From IMG/VR virus record IMGVR_UViG_3300032053_011398: a stretch of 64,000 nt of DNA. One strand, written 5' to 3'. The notes below the pieces were generated by a model that was not told the origin of the DNA, made no database searches, and was given only the letters and a program-made list of their open reading frames with translations. The DNA comes from a virus. The position numbers and the translations under genes were made by a program. Positions within the stretch are counted from its first letter, which is position 1. Each line of letters opens with the position of its first letter. This document shows positions 4,079-32,175 of the stretch, in pieces.

Positions 4079-4645
4079 ATGATGACTTATCTCGACATCG
4101 ACAAAGTGCAGAAAGCAAAAGCTGGATTCAGTTTTGACTACGGTCCTTTGCTGGACCAATTGCTCGCCCGCGTGCCGGTTAACGGCTTGGTGGTTGAATT
4201 AGGCTGTTTTTTGGGGTGCAGCACCGCTTATATCGCCCAATTTTTTAAACAACGCCAGCAAGCTGTGCGATTTATAACCTGCGATACTTTTCAAGGCTAC
4301 GCGGCAGCGAATCAATTTTACTTTGAAACGCTGAATAACCTGAAAGCCTGCGGGGTGCGCGATAACGTCCACGTCGTCACCGCCCGGTCCTGGGACTTGG
4401 CTGATCTCTTTGACAGCCAGGAGGTAGATTTCGTTTGGGTGGACGCCGCGCATGACTACCCATCTGTTCAACATGACTTAGAAGCATGGCTACCCAAGCT
4501 CAAATCGGCGCATTGCATTGCAGGCCATGACTATAGCGAAACTGGAGTGAAGCGGGCGGTTGATGAAATGGCCGCAGAACACAATCTGAGAGTCCAAGTT
4601 TACAATCCGGCAGGTTGGCAAAGCTGGTTCTTTAATTCAGCATAA
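4079..4645 (+). CDS. Class I SAM-dependent methyltransferase (Methyltransf_24-like)
   Basis: VELGCFLGCS, DFVWVDAAHDY, IAGHDY. Confidence 0.85.
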   Translation: MMTYLDIDKVQKAKAGFSFDYGPLLDQLLARVPVNGLVVELGCFLGCSTAYIAQFFKQRQQAVRFITCDTFQGYAAANQFYFETLNNLKACGVRDNVHVVTARSWDLADLFDSQEVDFVWVDAAHDYPSVQHDLEAWLPKLKSAHCIAGHDYSETGVKRAVDEMAAEHNLRVQVYNPAGWQSWFFNSA

Positions 4646-4689
4646 TCCTAGAACCAGCTTCTTGGATTACTTTAATTTGTAAACAAAAG

Positions 4690-5598
4690 CTATCGTTCGA
4701 CCAATTTTCCGTGCTGACCGCGCTTATATCGGGTGATAGAATGCTCCTTCGGGGTGCCGTTAAGCCGATTCCCGTAGTGCTGTTCAAAAGCATTATCATA
4801 GGTCCAAGCAGCGTCAACTTCCAGTTTGAAGTAGCCAAGGCATACCAACTTGCGGTCAATGGTGACCCGGCACTGCCAGCTTTTTCCAGGAGCAAACCAA
4901 GTGACACCCCGGTAGCTTGATTTCGCCCCCACTATGCGCGTCATGCGCCCCATGTTGGCCCGGCTGATTTTGTCGCGCTGCTCTGGAGTGCGCTTTAGAC
5001 CTCGGTGTGCCGCCGCGCACTTCTCAACGTGCTCCAAGGATTGTTTTTGACCGAGCTGGGCCTTGGCCATGCTCCGGCAGTGCTGTTTCAGCCAAGCTTG
5101 AAGTCCTGGATTAGCAGCACGAGCCGCCTGGACTTTAGCTACGTGTTCCGGGCTGACGACTTTGCCTTTGTTACTTGTGCTAATTCTGGCAGCAATTTCA
5201 GGAAGCATCCTGTGGCCAGTTTCGGCTTCGAGCTTGTCACAATAGACTTTTCTGGCTTTCCTCATAGCTTCACGGCGAGCTTCTTTGATATGCCCGGCCA
5301 GTGGACCGGTATGGCTTTCTCCCCAGTTGAGCAAGGTATCAACTCCGTAAAACCTGATGCGCCGTCTTTCTTCCATCAATGCTTCGATTTCGTCATCGGT
5401 CTCGAAGACTTTGCGCGGTTTGAAATCCTTACCAGAAGCAATCAAGTCGCTGAGGCCATGGTAAAGATAGAGCTGAGTTTTGGAGGGTGGTTGAAGGGCA
5501 TAACGCCGATGCTTATACATCCTCTGACCAGAACCTTTACCTACGTAGCAGACAGTCCCACCAGGCACGATCACTAATTCGTAAACATAATACTTCAT
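4690..5598 (-). CDS. GIY-YIG homing endonuclease with NUMOD3-like repeats and C-terminal AP2-like domain
   Basis: YYVY...YVGKG...R; SPEHVAK/TPEQRDKIS repeats; SSYRGVTW...LGYF..EVDAA. Confidence 0.85.
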   Translation of the reverse strand: MKYYVYELVIVPGGTVCYVGKGSGQRMYKHRRYALQPPSKTQLYLYHGLSDLIASGKDFKPRKVFETDDEIEALMEERRRIRFYGVDTLLNWGESHTGPLAGHIKEARREAMRKARKVYCDKLEAETGHRMLPEIAARISTSNKGKVVSPEHVAKVQAARAANPGLQAWLKQHCRSMAKAQLGQKQSLEHVEKCAAAHRGLKRTPEQRDKISRANMGRMTRIVGAKSSYRGVTWFAPGKSWQCRVTIDRKLVCLGYFKLEVDAAWTYDNAFEQHYGNRLNGTPKEHSITRYKRGQHGKLVER

Positions 5599-13594: not shown

Positions 13595-14026
13595 TGGTGG
13601 AGCTGGCGGGGAGTTGAACCCCGCGTCTTTGACATGATCCGACGCACATCCACATGCTTCTTCCGGTCAAACCGATTGCAACAGATTAGGCAGGCCCATG
13701 ACCGGATAAACTCTGGCCTGTGCTGCATTTTGCTGAACCTTTATTAAACAGGGCTTCAGAACCCCTGTTTTACCTGCTGGTTACGCCCACACCCCGTAGC
13801 AGGTGTCAAAGGGTGGACGGTCTGGCGCATTAGGCCAGAACAGGTTCGGCATAGCCCGTGCGAGCCAGAACTTCGTCAGGGTTGGCGAAGATCGCAGCAA
13901 CCTGGGCCAGCAAACCGTCTTCATTGCTTTTGGCAGATGATTTTTGATGGAGAGATTATCGTGGCCGACCATCATCCACGGCATGTCGTAACGGCTTCAC
14001 GTATCAAATCGAAGCCCGGCAGCCCC
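13595..14026 (-). ncRNA. ssrA: tmRNA, tag (A)AKSNEDGLLAQVAAIFANPDEVLARTGYAEPVLA*
   Basis: 5' GGGGCTG, 3' GACGCGGGGTTCAACTCCCCGCCAGCTCCACCA with G3-U70; tag ORF 13934-13830. Confidence 0.92.
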
Positions 14027-14512: not shown

Positions 14513-14588
14513 GTCGCGGTCAGCGGGACTCGCACCCGCAACTTCTGGTTTCTGAAACCAGCGACTCTGCTGATTGGCCTATCCCGGC
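14513..14588 (-). pseudogene. Degenerate tRNA-Leu(CAG)
   Basis: D, anticodon (ttCAGaa) and T arms present; acceptor 3' strand does not pair and there is no CCA. Confidence 0.6.
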
Positions 14589-19458: not shown

Positions 19459-19532
19459 TGGTAGGGGATAACGGTGCCGCCCCGCTGCCTCGTCGGTGTA
19501 AACGACGCACGCTGCTGTTACGCCAATCCCCC
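19459..19532 (-). tRNA. tRNA-Val(TAC)
   Basis: Loop ttTACac, CCA. Confidence 0.8.
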
Positions 19533-21208: not shown

Positions 21209-21288
21209 TGGCGCTCCCACCAGGATTCGCACCTGGAGCCTTCTCCTTCGCAGGGAGATGTGCAGATTACTAATTACACCTTGGGAGC
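21209..21288 (-). tRNA. tRNA-Arg(GCG)
   Basis: Loop ctGCGaa, CCA. Confidence 0.8.
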
Positions 21289-28401: not shown

Positions 28402-29259
28402 GTGAAACCGCGCTGCGTTTCCATTTTTCCGACCAACCGCTGCAACGCCCGGTGCTACTACTGCGCCTACCAGACGAACTACGCCCTGGCCGACGCGGAG
28501 GCGCTGTGCCGGAAAGGTGACGCGCTCAACCGCGACCTGCTGCTCAAGTTCATGGACGAGCTGCCGGTCAACAACATCGAAATCTCAGGAGGCGGCGAGC
28601 CGCTGGCGCACCCTGACTTTGCTTGGTTCGCCGGGGAGCTGGTCGCCCGCAACATCGGGGCCAAGCTCATCACCAACGGCATTCTGCTCGATGGCCCTGC
28701 CGCTGAAGCTGCGGCCAAGTTGAGCTACATTGAGCTATCGGTGAATTACTGGGACCACCGAAGCTTCGCCGAGACTCGCGGCCTGCCGGAGTTCTGGTTC
28801 GACATCGTGACGGCCAACATCATGAAACTGGCCCGGAGCAGGCCATCCTGCGTGCTGGGGGCCAAGGTGGTCCTGACCAGCCGGAACTACCCGTCGCTCC
28901 AGAAAATTCGTGAATACCTGATGCAGTTCGGGATTACCCGGCTGGTGGTCACGCCGGGCTACAGCCGCGATCCAAAAGAAGTCCCGCCGCCCGAAGTCTT
29001 CGGGCGCGACCGGTTGGCCCGCGCCAAGCCAAAGTGCCTTTGTTGCCAGCGCCAGCTCGACCATCCGGTCGTGGGCGCGGACGGCCACATCTACGCCTGC
29101 TGCTACTTCACCTACGTCCCCGGCATGAGGATCGGGAATCTGGCCGCGCAAAAGCTGGCGGACGTTCTGGACAACCCCGTCTTCGATCAGGGCCTTTGCG
29201 CCAAGGTCGAGCAGGTCATCACGGACTACCGGAACGGCGTCGTCACCGCCTTCCCCTGA
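28402..29259 (+). CDS. Radical SAM enzyme with SPASM/Twitch-like C-terminus
   Basis: CNARCYYC, ISGGGEP, ITNG, ADGHIYACC. Confidence 0.88.
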   Translation: MKPRCVSIFPTNRCNARCYYCAYQTNYALADAEALCRKGDALNRDLLLKFMDELPVNNIEISGGGEPLAHPDFAWFAGELVARNIGAKLITNGILLDGPAAEAAAKLSYIELSVNYWDHRSFAETRGLPEFWFDIVTANIMKLARSRPSCVLGAKVVLTSRNYPSLQKIREYLMQFGITRLVVTPGYSRDPKEVPPPEVFGRDRLARAKPKCLCCQRQLDHPVVGADGHIYACCYFTYVPGMRIGNLAAQKLADVLDNPVFDQGLCAKVEQVITDYRNGVVTAFP

Positions 29260-29265
29260 ACAAAC

Positions 29266-29372
29266 TGGCGCGGGAGTGGGCCGTCAGCCCACCTGACCAC
29301 GCTGGTCGCGTCAAAACAGCGGCTTGGCGTCTGCCCCTGGTGTAGGACGCTTGGCGAAGCCTTCGCTCCCGC
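29266..29372 (-). ncRNA. Non-canonical tRNA-like RNA (107 nt, four internal hairpins, G-CCA end)
   Basis: GCGGGAG/CTCCCGC-G-CCA closing stem, T-arm-like hairpin, no recognisable anticodon loop. Confidence 0.5.
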
Positions 29373-29378
29373 AAAAAT

Positions 29379-29454
29379 TGGTGGAAGTGAAGGGACTCGC
29401 ACCCTCAACCCCCTGCTTGCAAGGCAGGCGCTCTACTAATTGAGCTACACCCCC
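29379..29454 (-). tRNA. tRNA-Ala(TGC)
   Basis: G3-U70, loop ctTGCaa. Confidence 0.88.
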
Positions 29455-29459
29455 GAAAT

Positions 29460-29533
29460 TGGAGCGGGTGAGCGGTAACGATCCGCCGTATCAGCGTTGG
29501 CAACGCCGCGCTCTGCCATTGAGCTACACCCGC
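29460..29533 (-). tRNA. tRNA-Gly(GCC)
   Basis: Loop ttGCCaa, U73-CCA. Confidence 0.88.
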
Positions 29534-29535
29534 AT

Positions 29536-29612
29536 TGGGGCGAACGAGGAGATTTGCACTCCCAACGGTCGGACTCACAATCCGAGGCTCTGCTAATTGA
29601 GCTACGTTCGCC
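29536..29612 (-). tRNA. tRNA-His(GTG)
   Basis: G-1:C73, loop ttGTGag. Confidence 0.85.
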
Positions 29613-29800
29613 ACTCTGAAAATCAAAGCCCCACGGCCTCCACCTATGCTCGTGGATTGGGCCGTGGGGCATTTCAACAAAGAACAACACACTTCCATCA
29701 AGATTTCCACTGGTCTCCCAGTCTTGAAGCCACAGCATTCACGGTGGTCGTTTACCGGATTATCGGCCCGGCTCTCGGCTCCATCCGGAGCATGTGTGCT

Positions 29801-29844
29801 TAAAACTGAAAACCCCCGCACTCTTTCGGGTAGCGGGGGTTTTC
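29801..29844 (-). terminator. Attenuator terminator hairpin
   Basis: GAAAACCCCCGC/GCGGGGGTTTTC 12-bp stem then AGTTTT. Confidence 0.8.
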
Positions 29845-29861
29845 AAAATCTGGTTGGTCCG

Positions 29862-30002
29862 CTACCCTACTACCTCACCTGGTTCGCGTGTGCTACGGGT
29901 GGCAAAGCACAACGACGTGCCAGTATCCCACCCTTGGGCCAGGGCAGAATACTGCGCCCAGCTATTGGCAGGTTTCGCTGACACGCTATGCAACTTCATC
30001 AT
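29862..30002 (-). CDS. Putative 46-aa attenuation leader peptide of the tRNA array
   Basis: MMKLHSVSAKPANSWAQYSALAQGWDTGTSLCFATRSTREPGEVVG*; stop lies within the antiterminator strand GGGTAGCGG. Confidence 0.65.
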   Translation of the reverse strand: MMKLHSVSAKPANSWAQYSALAQGWDTGTSLCFATRSTREPGEVVG

Positions 30003-30009
30003 CGCGGTG

Positions 30010-30038
30010 AGTCTAAATCGTTTTCGTAAACGGTGCAA
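30010..30038 (-). promoter_or_regulatory. sigma70-like promoter TTGCAC-N17-TAGACT, 7 nt before the leader ATG
   Basis: Consensus-like hexamers at 17-nt spacing. Confidence 0.6.
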
Positions 30039-30126
30039 GAACTTTCACAACTTTTTAGCAACTTTTTAGCAACTTTTTTCGTAAACACAAACCACTGGGC
30101 CACAACGAGGAGCAACGAATACGCGC

Positions 30127-32175
30127 TTATTCTTCCAGATTTTTCTGCACGACTGGCATTGGAACACCCATCATTTGATACAATTCCTCCTCCGAAATGA
30201 CCCGCGTGCCGTGCTTCCTCGCGCCCTCCGCCTTGTTATTGCCCCCGCCCGTGCCTTGCACCAGGAAGTCCACCTTCTTGGTCACCTGCCCCTTGACGAC
30301 GCCGCCGTTCTGCTCGATCAACGCGCTCACATCATCGCGCCGACCGCTCTGGAGTGCTCCGGTAATGCAGAAAGTTTTTCCACCGAGCACGCCTCCAGCC
30401 TGCTGATCCTCCTCGAAGTAAAATCCACAATCAGCCAACATCTCCAGCTCCTCGATGTTCCGCGTAAAATAGGTCAGCAACTCCGCCGTGGCGACTTTCC
30501 CGATCAGCTCCTCGACTTCGTGCTGGTATTGCTCGATTCGTTGCAGCGGTGACAGCCTTTTTTGCTTTTCGTCCTCCTCGTTGATCGGTCGGCTGAACTT
30601 GGTCGCCAAATCCTGGCAGCTCGTCTTGCCAATGCCCTCAATGCTCAGCGCCGAGAGCTTGCGCCACAGCGGGCCGTTCTTGGCCGCTGCCAGCCCCTCC
30701 CTCATCTTCCTGGCCGTCGCGGGCTTGAGGAAGCTGAAGTCGGCGATGGCGAACAAATCGGATAGTTTCTTAACGCTGGCCTTGTCCATCAACTGGCGCA
30801 CGGTCGTATCCCCGCAGCCGTCGATGTCAAGCGCATCCTTGCTCACCGCGTAAACCAGCCGGGCGAACACCTGGTCATCGCACTCCGGGTTCACACAGTA
30901 GGAATGAACCAGGCCCGTGGGGCGCTCCAGGGGCGTGGAGCAGCAGGGGCAGGTTTTGGGCATCTGGTAGCTCTGGTTGGGGTTCTTTTTGGTCGGCGAG
31001 GGCCGGGCTAAGCCGACCACCTTGGGGATCACTTCGCCGCTGCGCTGGACGAGCACGTAGTCGCCCACGTCGATGCCGAGGCGGTCCAGCTCGTCCTGGT
31101 TGCAGAGCGAAGCGCGGGCCACGACGGCTCCGCCGAGGCTGACCGGCTCCAACTGCGCGACCGGCGTCACCTGGCCGGTCTTGCCCACCTGAACGAGCAC
31201 GCCAGCCAGCCGCGTTTCCTTGGTATCAGGTGGGAACTTATAGGCCGCGCCCCATTTGGGCGCACGCTCGCCCTCACCCAAGTCGCGCTGCTTCTCCATG
31301 GAATTAACCTTGATAACCAGGCCATCGGTGTCCAAATCGAGAGCCTTCCGGTAAGCGTCCAGGTGATGGATGGCCGGGATCAGGTCAGCGTCGGCCATGC
31401 AGGTCGTGTAAGGCAACCCTGGCATGTCCTGGCGCACAGGAAGCGTCATCGTAGTGGGGAAGCCCAAGGTTTCCAGATAGTCGAGCAGCGACTCCTGGGT
31501 GGTGACGCCGGGCGGCAGGTCGGACGGGACGCTATAAGCCGCGAAGCTGAGTTTGCGCTTGGCGACCTCCCTGGAATCCTTGAGCATCATGCTCCCGGAG
31601 GCCCCGTTGCGCGGATTGGCCAACCGGTCATTCTCCGAAACACCCTGATTGTAGGCGCTAAACGAAGACAAACTCCAATAAACCTCGCCGCGCACCTCGA
31701 TGGTCACCGGTTTGCGGAGCGTCAGGGGGATCGAGTGGACGGTGCGAGCATTCTCGGTCACGTCCGCGCCCTCGACGCCGTTGCCACGGGTGAGCGCCTG
31801 GACGAGCTGGCCTTCCCTGTAGCTCAGGTGCAGGCTGAGGCCGTCGATTTTCATTTCGAGGATAACCTCCTCGCTCTCCAGGCCCGCGAAGAAAGTCGCG
31901 GTCTCGTTGGCGTTGTTGATGTTATCTAGCGACAACATCTTGACCTTGTGCCGGATTTTCCGCAACCCGTTGGGGGTCGGACAGCCGACCCGCGTGATAG
32001 GCGAATTGGGATCGCCCATTTCCGGGTGCTCCTGCTCCAGGACAGTCAGCTCACGGAATTTTTGGTCATACTCTACATCAGAGATGGTGGGGCTGTTCGC
32101 CACGTAGTAGCGAAACGAGTGATCGGTCAGCTCCTTGCGGAGCGCGAGAATCTTTTGCGCATCGGTCATGTTCAT
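30127..32175 (-). CDS. ligA: NAD-dependent DNA ligase
   Basis: EMKIDG, ALTRGNG, EVRGEV, NPRN, DGLVIK, zinc finger, BRCT. Confidence 0.95.
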   Translation of the reverse strand: MNMTDAQKILALRKELTDHSFRYYVANSPTISDVEYDQKFRELTVLEQEHPEMGDPNSPITRVGCPTPNGLRKIRHKVKMLSLDNINNANETATFFAGLESEEVILEMKIDGLSLHLSYREGQLVQALTRGNGVEGADVTENARTVHSIPLTLRKPVTIEVRGEVYWSLSSFSAYNQGVSENDRLANPRNGASGSMMLKDSREVAKRKLSFAAYSVPSDLPPGVTTQESLLDYLETLGFPTTMTLPVRQDMPGLPYTTCMADADLIPAIHHLDAYRKALDLDTDGLVIKVNSMEKQRDLGEGERAPKWGAAYKFPPDTKETRLAGVLVQVGKTGQVTPVAQLEPVSLGGAVVARASLCNQDELDRLGIDVGDYVLVQRSGEVIPKVVGLARPSPTKKNPNQSYQMPKTCPCCSTPLERPTGLVHSYCVNPECDDQVFARLVYAVSKDALDIDGCGDTTVRQLMDKASVKKLSDLFAIADFSFLKPATARKMREGLAAAKNGPLWRKLSALSIEGIGKTSCQDLATKFSRPINEEDEKQKRLSPLQRIEQYQHEVEELIGKVATAELLTYFTRNIEELEMLADCGFYFEEDQQAGGVLGGKTFCITGALQSGRRDDVSALIEQNGGVVKGQVTKKVDFLVQGTGGGNNKAEGARKHGTRVISEEELYQMMGVPMPVVQKNLEE

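Follow-up and report, generated by a model that had tools for sequence, protein, structure and literature searches.

A putative ribosome-dependent attenuator with an amino-acid-rich leader reading frame ahead of tRNA genes in a clade of metagenomic phages

Leader-peptide attenuators of the enterobacterial trpL, hisL, thrL, pheL and ilvL type place a short open reading frame (ORF) between a promoter and an intrinsic terminator. In these systems, one strand is common to the antiterminator and the terminator, a ribosome that has reached the leader's end keeps the antiterminator from forming, and a hairpin is completed just before the terminator region. A similar layout is found on the minus strand of a 64,000-nucleotide (nt) stretch of the IMG/VR virus record IMGVR_UViG_3300032053_011398 (hereafter, the window), where a leader ORF and a terminator (T1) lie between the end of the NAD-dependent DNA ligase gene (ligA) and a conserved structured RNA (element 2), followed by a first cluster of tRNA genes. 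We consider it fairly probable, based on sequence comparison and folding, that this unit is a ribosome-dependent transcription attenuator acting as a timer of leader translation, i.e., as a general sensor of translation speed. Unlike in the trpL type, the phage leader has no codon run for a single amino acid, nearly all 20 being present once or a few times; its ORF is three to four times longer, with a start that is probably leaderless; read-through, and not super-attenuation, is the default predicted for an untranslated leader; and the targets are phage RNA genes (the structured RNA and tRNA-His/Gly/Ala) instead of biosynthetic enzymes.

Other described systems share parts of this design. Inhibitor-responsive attenuators such as vmlR of B. 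subtilis (Term-seq class) also combine an upstream ORF with alternative terminator and antiterminator folds (PMC9226507). In that class, any slowing of the ribosome on the ORF leads to read-through and the output repairs translation, with which the folding and composition of the phage leader are consistent; however, the ORFs are very short, not diverse in amino acids, cellular and drug-responsive, and they control ABCF or efflux genes (PMC9226507). The leaderless polycysteine short ORFs of mycobacteria stand at the 5' end of the transcript, as the phage leader probably does, and regulate downstream operon genes through their own translation, but they sense one amino acid via consecutive Cys codons (bioRxiv 10.1101/834739), and the phage leader is set apart from them by an evident intrinsic terminator/antiterminator pair. 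T-box riboswitches also set translation-supply genes by tRNA status via a choice between terminator and antiterminator. The phage leader has neither the T-box sequence nor its specifier architecture (RF00230 gave no match in 29300-30400 even at E <= 10, and none at the gathering threshold in the window), and sensing would proceed via the ribosome and not via one tRNA. In the Sinorhizobium rnTrpL/peTrpL system, the terminated leader is an abundant structured small RNA which also encodes a peptide (PMC6614838, PMC7968998). By analogy, and given its strong nucleotide conservation, the ~200-nt product ending at T1 could be a dual-function small RNA, although the phage leader peptide, unlike peTrpL, is not conserved.

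Two Rfam leader families were considered and rejected. The Thr_leader family (RF00506) scores 28.3 bits in the window and 33.1 bits in one relative (L008) against a gathering threshold of 55 bits, with an alignment that covers mainly the terminator, and a match to the rnk leader is also below threshold. Thus, lacking a codon run, a biosynthetic operon, a T-box match and a Thr_leader score above 28-33 bits, the element would work like a leader-peptide attenuator but fits no described family. Its closest functional analogues are the translation-slowing attenuators (PMC9226507) and the leaderless short-ORF attenuators (bioRxiv 10.1101/834739). Our literature searches found no description of an attenuator ahead of phage tRNA genes, nor of a leader defined by amino acid completeness.

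Predicted terminator and antiterminator in 13 phage contigs

Using the LigA of the window as reference, a clade of ~220-255-kb metagenomic phage contigs was picked out by its ligase, and IMG/VR was also used. The leader/terminator unit was found in 12 further distinct phage contigs (13 with the window). The LigA identity to the window is 80% in L004, 70% in L005, 65% in L001, 64% in L006 and L007, 63% in L027, 62% in L009, 61% in L008, 56% in L025, 47% in L032 and 45% in L035; the ligase of the twelfth relative, L111, lies outside the compared locus, so that the range of 45-80% covers the other 11. In all 13 contigs, the unit is directly upstream of element 2 and/or tRNA genes, and it stays with these when other genes part it from ligA (L008, L025, L032). 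Two relatives without tRNAs beside ligA (L024, L026) do not have the unit. By sequence profile, each locus carries a single copy, and the window has no other.

The initial annotation of the window had described a promoter (TTGCAC-N17-TAGACT), an ATG 7 nt after its -10 hexamer, a 46-codon ORF with 19 amino acids and no Ile, a stop-codon segment GGGTAGCGG (29867-29859) exactly complementary to CCGCTACCC (29836-29828), and a terminator with CCGCTACCC in its 5' arm and loop. All of these are present. The promoter is sigma-70-like, CCGCTACCC lies across the top of the 5' arm and the loop of a strong intrinsic terminator, and the promoter pattern has its only match within the 64 kb here. Read directly from the sequence, the order on the minus strand is ligase end, A/T tract, promoter, ATG, ORF and T1 (Table 1).

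Table 1. Features of the leader/terminator unit and its surroundings in the window
Feature	Positions	Strand	Evidence or remark
End of NAD-dependent DNA ligase gene (ligA)	30127	-	sequence reading
A/T-rich tract with phased A runs, abutting the -35 on its upstream side	30039-30079	-	sequence reading
Promoter-like site: -35 TTGCAC 30038-30033, 17-nt spacer, -10 TAGACT 30015-30010	30010-30038	-	pattern scan
Leader ORF, 46 codons plus TAG stop (29864-29862), 19/20 amino acids	29862-30002	-	sequence reading
Structured 5' domain in the ORF, nested hairpins over the K-P ... Q-G-W-D codons	29916-29986	-	RNAalifold hairpin, some two-sided changes
Hairpin P2, TTGTGCT / AGCACA	29889-29912	-	fold and relatives
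Region 2: last four codons, stop and end bases of GGGTAGCGG; putative antiterminator 5' strand	29859-29873	-	pairing, relatives
Post-stop spacer, beginning GCGGACCAACCAG	29844-29861	-	sequence reading
Terminator T1: 5' arm 29843-29833, loop 29832-29820, 3' arm 29819-29809, U tract to 29801	29801-29843	-	folding
Element 2, conserved structured RNA	29618-29800	-	~15 nt past T1; fold z-score -4.10
Hairpin T2, closing element 2, then CTTTGATTTTC	29670-29628	-	co-varying
First tRNA cluster: His(GTG), Gly(GCC), Ala(TGC)	29379-29611	-	tRNA-His 6 nt past the T2 tail
Radical-SAM (SPASM-type) gene	28402-29259	+	inside the tRNA region
tmRNA	13595-14026	-	Rfam, 88.9 bits
Three Rfam tRNA-model matches unreported by ARAGORN	21212-21288, 19462-19532, 14515-14588	-	Rfam

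The T1 stem (AAAACCCCCGC / GCGGGGGTTTT) with its U tract has a folding energy of -17.7 to -20.7 kcal/mol, depending on the stretch folded. A canonical T1 hairpin with 4-6 U right after the stem is present in 13/13 leaders, with energies of -14 to -24 kcal/mol. For this comparison T1 was assessed by folding each sequence and not by alignment columns, since the MAFFT alignment (A3) misregisters its 3' arm. A consensus terminator scanner missed both T1 and the second hairpin downstream (T2) because their loops are longer than 8 nt.

The strand shared by the two structures is region 3, which is the T1 5' arm extended into the loop to 29828, and its best upstream partner ends between -1 and +6 nt from the stop codon in 13/13 leaders. 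In the window, the register homologous to that of the relatives pairs GGTAGTAGGG (29873-29864) with CCCCGCTACC, with one mismatch and one G-U. The perfect 9-base-pair register is offset from it by 5-6 nt, and both registers compete with T1. In alignment A3, 92.9% of the cells of an 11-pair helix are paired, versus 29-56% when the partner is slid by 1-3 columns.

The strands differ between lineages in a coordinated way. In five leaders, region 2 is GGTAGCAGG and region 3 is CCTGCTACC, while L009 has GGTAGCGGG with CCCGCTACC, the change on the ORF side being synonymous (GCA to GCG). Two bases were lost from both strands in L006 (GGAGCGGG with CCCGCTCC) as well as in L007 (GAGCGGGTT with AACCCGCTC), and a base was gained on all three strands, including region 4, in L032 (GGTAAGCAGG with CCTGCTTACC). 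The pair GGGTAG-g-CGGG and CCCGCTACCC is found in L111, and a wholly different sequence in L035 (GTGTGGTGGG with CCCACCACAC). These coordinated indels and the distant variants, judged singly, make up most of the support for the antiterminator, and they are the stronger evidence, being changes that a column count does not score. A swap test of region 3 against non-self upstream regions discriminated poorly, because most lineages carry the same arm. The relatives thereby agree with the attenuator geometry as originally proposed, in which a leader ORF is combined with mutually exclusive antiterminator and terminator helices, the antiterminator taking its 5' strand from the last part of the ORF.

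A Shine-Dalgarno-like (A)GGAGGT was also observed in region 2, 4 nt before the last two codons, in most relatives (e.g., L004 6264-6272 and L025 6643-6651). It could hold the terminating ribosome on the antiterminator strand, or it could just reflect pairing with the ACCTC of region 3.

Leader ORF: reading frame, peptide and amino acid set

Gap runs were counted on a MAFFT alignment made without regard to codons. Inside the ORF, 8/9 are multiples of three (36, 6, 3, 3, 3, 3, 3 and 6), versus 1/10 after the stop (Fisher p = 0.001). The length of the ORF is 46-49 codons in 9/10 alignable leaders despite mutually offsetting indels, and ranges from 42 to 62 codons across all leaders, with L001 being the longest. 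Based on a codon alignment rebuilt from the gap positions, the identity at codon positions 1, 2 and 3 is 0.66, 0.60 and 0.57, the amino acid identity (0.47) is below the nucleotide identity, and the codon differences are 206 synonymous versus 1126 nonsynonymous. The peptide of L035 cannot be aligned with the others. These values point to a leader peptide that is without normal purifying selection. Since the frame and the length are maintained and the product is not, the pattern has the signature of a regulatory leader ORF.

This pattern also bears on a simpler explanation, namely that the locus is an ordinary small gene or a dual-function small RNA. The product would then be either the ~200-nt transcript ended by T1 or the peptide, the complementarity of the ORF end to T1 would serve RNA stability or be incidental, and element 2 and the tRNAs would be transcribed by unregulated leakage. 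A strong promoter and a strong terminator flanking a ~200-nt structured RNA are indeed the usual anatomy of a small-RNA gene, RNAs and peptides derived from attenuators are known to have functions of their own (rnTrpL/peTrpL; PMC6614838, PMC7968998), and the ORF of L001, in a family mostly left uncalled by gene finders, was called a hypothetical protein by JGI. Considering, however, that the peptide shows no purifying selection and is unalignable in L035, that the pairing of the ORF end with T1 is kept through at least five sequence versions and always at the stop, and that neither element 2 nor the tRNAs are preceded by a separate promoter, we regard this explanation as very unlikely.

The bases of the ORF appear to be under RNA-level constraint as well. 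Only 0.43 of the third codon positions of the neighbouring ligA are identical, and the 211 nt of 29800-30010, with the structured 5' domain, fold with a z-score of -3.66. As a guess, this domain might be a pausing element for RNA polymerase. The arms of hairpin P2 vary by lineage (TCGCTC/GAGCGA, GTTCG/CGAAC), and its loop in the relatives bears the 5' strand of the 'clamp' helix described below. In addition, the motif (C)GAACCAG was observed twice in the window, at 29881-29887 in the ORF (Glu-Pro codons GAA CCA) and at 29851-29857 in the post-stop spacer, and is likewise placed in the relatives. A pause signal or a binding site are possibilities for this duplication.

Such features would be expected if the antiterminator were controlled by a ligand, a protein or a tRNA, as in riboswitches, T-boxes or RNA-binding antiterminators, with an ORF that is secondary or weakly translated and with the structured 5' domain or the repeated CGAACCAG motif as the sensor. 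The nucleotides are more conserved than the peptide, many codons are without synonymous change despite near-saturated third positions in ligA, strong structure is predicted for the 5' domain, and GAACCAG is present in both ORF and spacer. What makes such control quite unlikely in our view is that L035 lacks the 5' domain sequence and still keeps the ORF, the antiterminator and T1 architecture and a near-complete amino acid set. Moreover, the indels preserve the reading frame, region 2 has the stop codon at its edge in every leader, and the locus matches no Rfam family at threshold and no T-box even at the relaxed E-value given above.

The amino acid composition is the feature that distinguishes this leader. 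The initial suggestion that it samples almost every tRNA held out of sample, as the full set of 20 amino acids is present in 10/12 of the other leaders (42-62 residues) and a set of 19 in the remaining two (L025 is without Tyr and L035 without Asn). Over the 13 leaders, this gives ten with 20 amino acids and three with 19, including the window. There are 35-41 distinct codons per leader, and no amino acid is clustered or in a run. By chance, all 20 would be found in 0.3-0.8% of random 42-48-mers drawn with the composition of LigA, in 1.2-2.3% of 43-48-residue windows taken from the long ORFs of the window's own phage, and in 1.5-6% of open-frame nucleotide shuffles of the 42-49-codon leaders (18% for the 62-codon L001).

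A column permutation was applied to the 10 aligned leaders, in which residues are shuffled within alignment columns, so that column composition is kept and the combinations within each sequence are broken. The chimeras reach a summed amino acid count of 187.7 +/- 2.2 (maximum 195 in 5000 permutations) versus 198 observed, which none of the 5000 attained; restricted to a single leader per lineage (six lineages), the test gives P = 0.0008. Completeness exceeds that of the chimeras because residues found once per leader occupy different columns in different lineages. Cys, usually in column 49, is elsewhere in 34 and 44 (L025), Asp moves from column 42 to 30 in L008, L009 and L027 (where column 42 is Asn or Lys), Phe from 50 to 35 (L006, L007), His from 20 to 19, 33 or 38, and Tyr from 34 to 43 (L006). 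The sets stay complete without the last six codons, which lie under a ribosome already covering region 2. Completeness fits a timer in which the decoding time of each codon counts, and is poorly explained by the rival readings. As these statistics are post hoc in their detail and the lineages partly non-independent, we place the likelihood that completeness itself is selected somewhere between evenly balanced and fairly good. A comparison by eye for a specific regulatory codon, or for leader codons matching the phage tRNA set, gave no clear pattern.

Folding order and predicted switch

Upstream of the leader, the A/T-rich tract contains three tandem 11-nt repeats AAAAAGTTGCT and resembles an UP element, which would be its putative role; similar tracts lie upstream of the -35 in the relatives. 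A GC-rich discriminator, CACCGCG, follows directly 3' of the -10, and TTGMNN-N17-TAGAGT/TAGACT/TAGTTT/TAGGCT is kept at the same site in the closer relatives. Upstream A-tract repeats together with a GC-rich discriminator are features characteristic of stable-RNA promoters subject to growth-rate or stringent control, which suggests a promoter of this type. In 9/13 leaders the ATG lies 7-10 nt past the -10 hexamer, without a Shine-Dalgarno sequence. With only 7 nt in the window, the mRNA is probably leaderless there.

Folding was compared at successive states of the transcript. When it is ended at the T1 loop, the antiterminator is in the minimum-free-energy fold of 13/13 leaders, with 7-16 pairs, and in the complete RNA T1 is in the minimum-free-energy fold of 11/13. 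If the positions from 15 nt before to 12 nt after the stop are kept single-stranded, mimicking a ribosome, T1 is found in 13/13. The folding thus predicts an antiterminator and read-through when no ribosome is at the ORF end, and termination when a ribosome is there in time.

A further helix, the 'clamp', has its 5' strand starting 39-44 nt before the stop and its 3' strand starting at the last base of the stop (ACGGACG in the post-stop spacer of the relatives). It encloses region 2 and is complete just before region 3 is transcribed. In eight leaders, the clamp consists of (C)GTCCGT and ACGGAC(G). Compensation is full in L035 (TGGTCGCC/GGCGACCG, -17.4 kcal/mol, 0.6% of shuffles) and in L111 (TGTGTCC/GGACACA) and partial in L008 (CGTGC/GCACG) and L001, and the helix is weak in the window. 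As in trp and his, the clamp could be a pause hairpin that gives the ribosome time to draw level with the polymerase. Since region 2 and the 3' strand of the clamp are only 0-2 nt apart, it could also form an H-type pseudoknot, stacked on the antiterminator.

A classical three-state (trp-like) attenuator would assign the clamp a different part, that of the 1:2 pause/anti-antiterminator hairpin. In an untranslated leader, region 2 would be sequestered by the clamp, leaving T1 to form, and only a stall on the ~10 codons over the clamp 5' strand (L-C-F-x-V-R-S-T-L-E) would free region 2, with a few specific codons being sensed, for instance the CGT Arg codon of the 12 alignable leaders (all but L035). 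We consider this unlikely, since in all minimum-free-energy folds that include region 3 the clamp gives way to the antiterminator, the H-type layout may allow both helices to coexist, and the clamp is weak in the window; furthermore, the retention of all 20 amino acids and the single-copy residues shifting across the whole ORF would be left unexplained. In favour of the three-state scheme, the clamp geometry is fixed and compensated in distant leaders (L035, L111, L008), and folding of the nascent RNA already predicts this helix while region 3 has yet to be made. The CGT codon does not vary among the 10 aligned leaders and recurs in L032 and L111, and GAA CCA is nucleotide-invariant in the same 10.

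From the anatomy, its conservation, the coordinated strand changes, the kept frame, the amino acid completeness and the folding preferences, we infer a transcription start, actual translation of the leader, coupling to the polymerase, a direction of the switch and a physiological signal for the translation timer. The stable-RNA-type promoter would start the mRNA at the AUG or a few bases before it, and a ribosome would translate the 42-62-codon ORF, in which essentially every amino acid is represented by one codon or more. Its last three to four codons and the stop would be the 5' strand of the antiterminator, partner of the T1 5' arm. If the ribosome is at the ORF end when the polymerase makes T1, this strand would be covered, T1 would fold and transcription would stop (OFF). 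If the ribosome is late or absent, the antiterminator would form first and the polymerase would enter element 2 and the first tRNA genes (ON). Lateness would result from scarcity of any one aminoacyl-tRNA or from a general impairment of translation, and more tRNA would then lead to faster translation and the return of termination, i.e., to negative feedback.

The more specific proposal is that selection keeps at least one codon per amino acid, making the leader a pan-aminoacyl-tRNA 'speedometer' in which a shortage of any charged tRNA turns on transcription of the regulatory RNA and the phage tRNAs, with termination upon recovery. This is put forward tentatively, and we think it slightly likelier to be wrong than right. 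Host shut-off, starvation or tRNA-cleaving defences could be the sources of such a shortage.

Several observations weigh against the attenuator reading. Taken alone, the pairing in the window barely beats chance, its duplex energy being equalled by 14/300 shuffled upstream sequences, and the perfect 9 base pairs overlap only four bases of the T1 stem; that it is non-random follows from the relatives, which keep the partner strand at the stop codon. Strict column covariation is thin, with one pair changing from AU to GC in three sequences and a score matched by 17/500 shuffles. The significance of all 20 amino acids is modest for each sequence (P 0.015-0.23 versus nucleotide shuffles), and the sequences are not independent. 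The higher conservation of the ORF nucleotides relative to the peptide implies that an RNA-level function (aptamer, protein site or small RNA) is also selected. In 4/13 leaders the ATG is 18-43 nt from the putative -10, again without a Shine-Dalgarno sequence. T2 may stop read-through before the tRNAs. Finally, the sole ORF gap that is not a multiple of three, one additional base in L027, shifts the frame. Around this base (5140-5150, one extra G in CAGGTAT), each half of the L027 ORF fits the family in its own frame, as in an assembly error or a real frameshift; it may be the former, the contig name suggesting a long-read assembly.

Downstream RNA genes and meaning for phage tRNA supply

Element 2 is ~170-250 nt long (e.g., 6331-6510 in L004, 6795-7045 in L008 and 6175-6360 in L032) and has a multi-branch fold. 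Its helices co-vary in the relatives (CCGG/CCGG, CCAG/CTGG, CTGC/GCAG, and TCGG/CCGA around the loop GCCGATAAT), and a single-stranded segment, GTTCTTTGTTGAA, is invariant. The U tract of T2 is broken or absent in several relatives. No Rfam family matched element 2. It looks like a small regulatory RNA with an expression that would depend on read-through of T1. The gap from T1 to element 2 and that from T2 to tRNA-His are both too short to accommodate a promoter, and therefore element 2 and the tRNAs need read-through. In L009, a ~570-nt insertion with reverse-strand ORFs (4100-4690) lies between T1 and element 2, and therefore the leader unit and element 2 are separable.

The initial annotation had the element heading one ~20-kb tRNA/tmRNA operon. 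This part was not borne out, as plus-strand genes, such as the radical-SAM gene, interrupt the region and element 2 and T2 come before tRNA-His. Given the plus-strand genes beyond tRNA-Ala, the attenuator cannot gate the whole 20 kb or the tmRNA, and what it would govern is at most element 2 and the first tRNA cluster (His, Gly, Ala). The radical-SAM gene was also observed at the same place in L004 and L005, beside a gene for a PTP-family phosphatase. At the gathering threshold, Rfam finds only tRNAs and the tmRNA in the window. Several of the ARAGORN tRNAs score low in Rfam, and the phage tRNAs of the window appear atypical.

The distribution of the unit was searched further. A DNA search with 29600-30130 against an isolate-phage collection gave no match, and LigA has no relative above 35% identity in that collection. 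Exact 25-mer and 19-mer scans of viral contigs returned nothing or the contig of L001 alone. With a codon-degenerate pattern, a first metagenome scan gave 0 matches, and the second metagenome pattern scan gave only duplicates of L004 and L008 plus chance matches. The leader peptide profile, run against 5.8 billion proteins, matched only the ORF of L001. A genome-contig scan yielded three matches in metagenome-assembled genomes of Bacteroidota; these did not fit the leader profile, were discarded as chance and have no bearing on the host.

To our knowledge, the control of phage tRNA expression has been little studied. The role of the phage tRNA genes themselves is debated, with codon compensation, replacement of degraded host tRNAs and escape from anticodon nucleases being proposed (PMC10264068). 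If the attenuator reading is true, a conserved cis-element would tie phage tRNA transcription to translation speed, which would open the replacement hypothesis to a direct test. Ribosome-mediated attenuation would also gain a new design, in which the leader samples all amino acids and not a single one, and the element would provide a compact, portable sensor of overall translational capacity. The analysis also reveals element 2 as a second conserved structured RNA, which would depend on the switch. On the 'speedometer' proposal, the unit would amount to a virus-borne homeostatic controller of tRNA supply, in which sensing would rely on amino acid completeness and not on a codon run.

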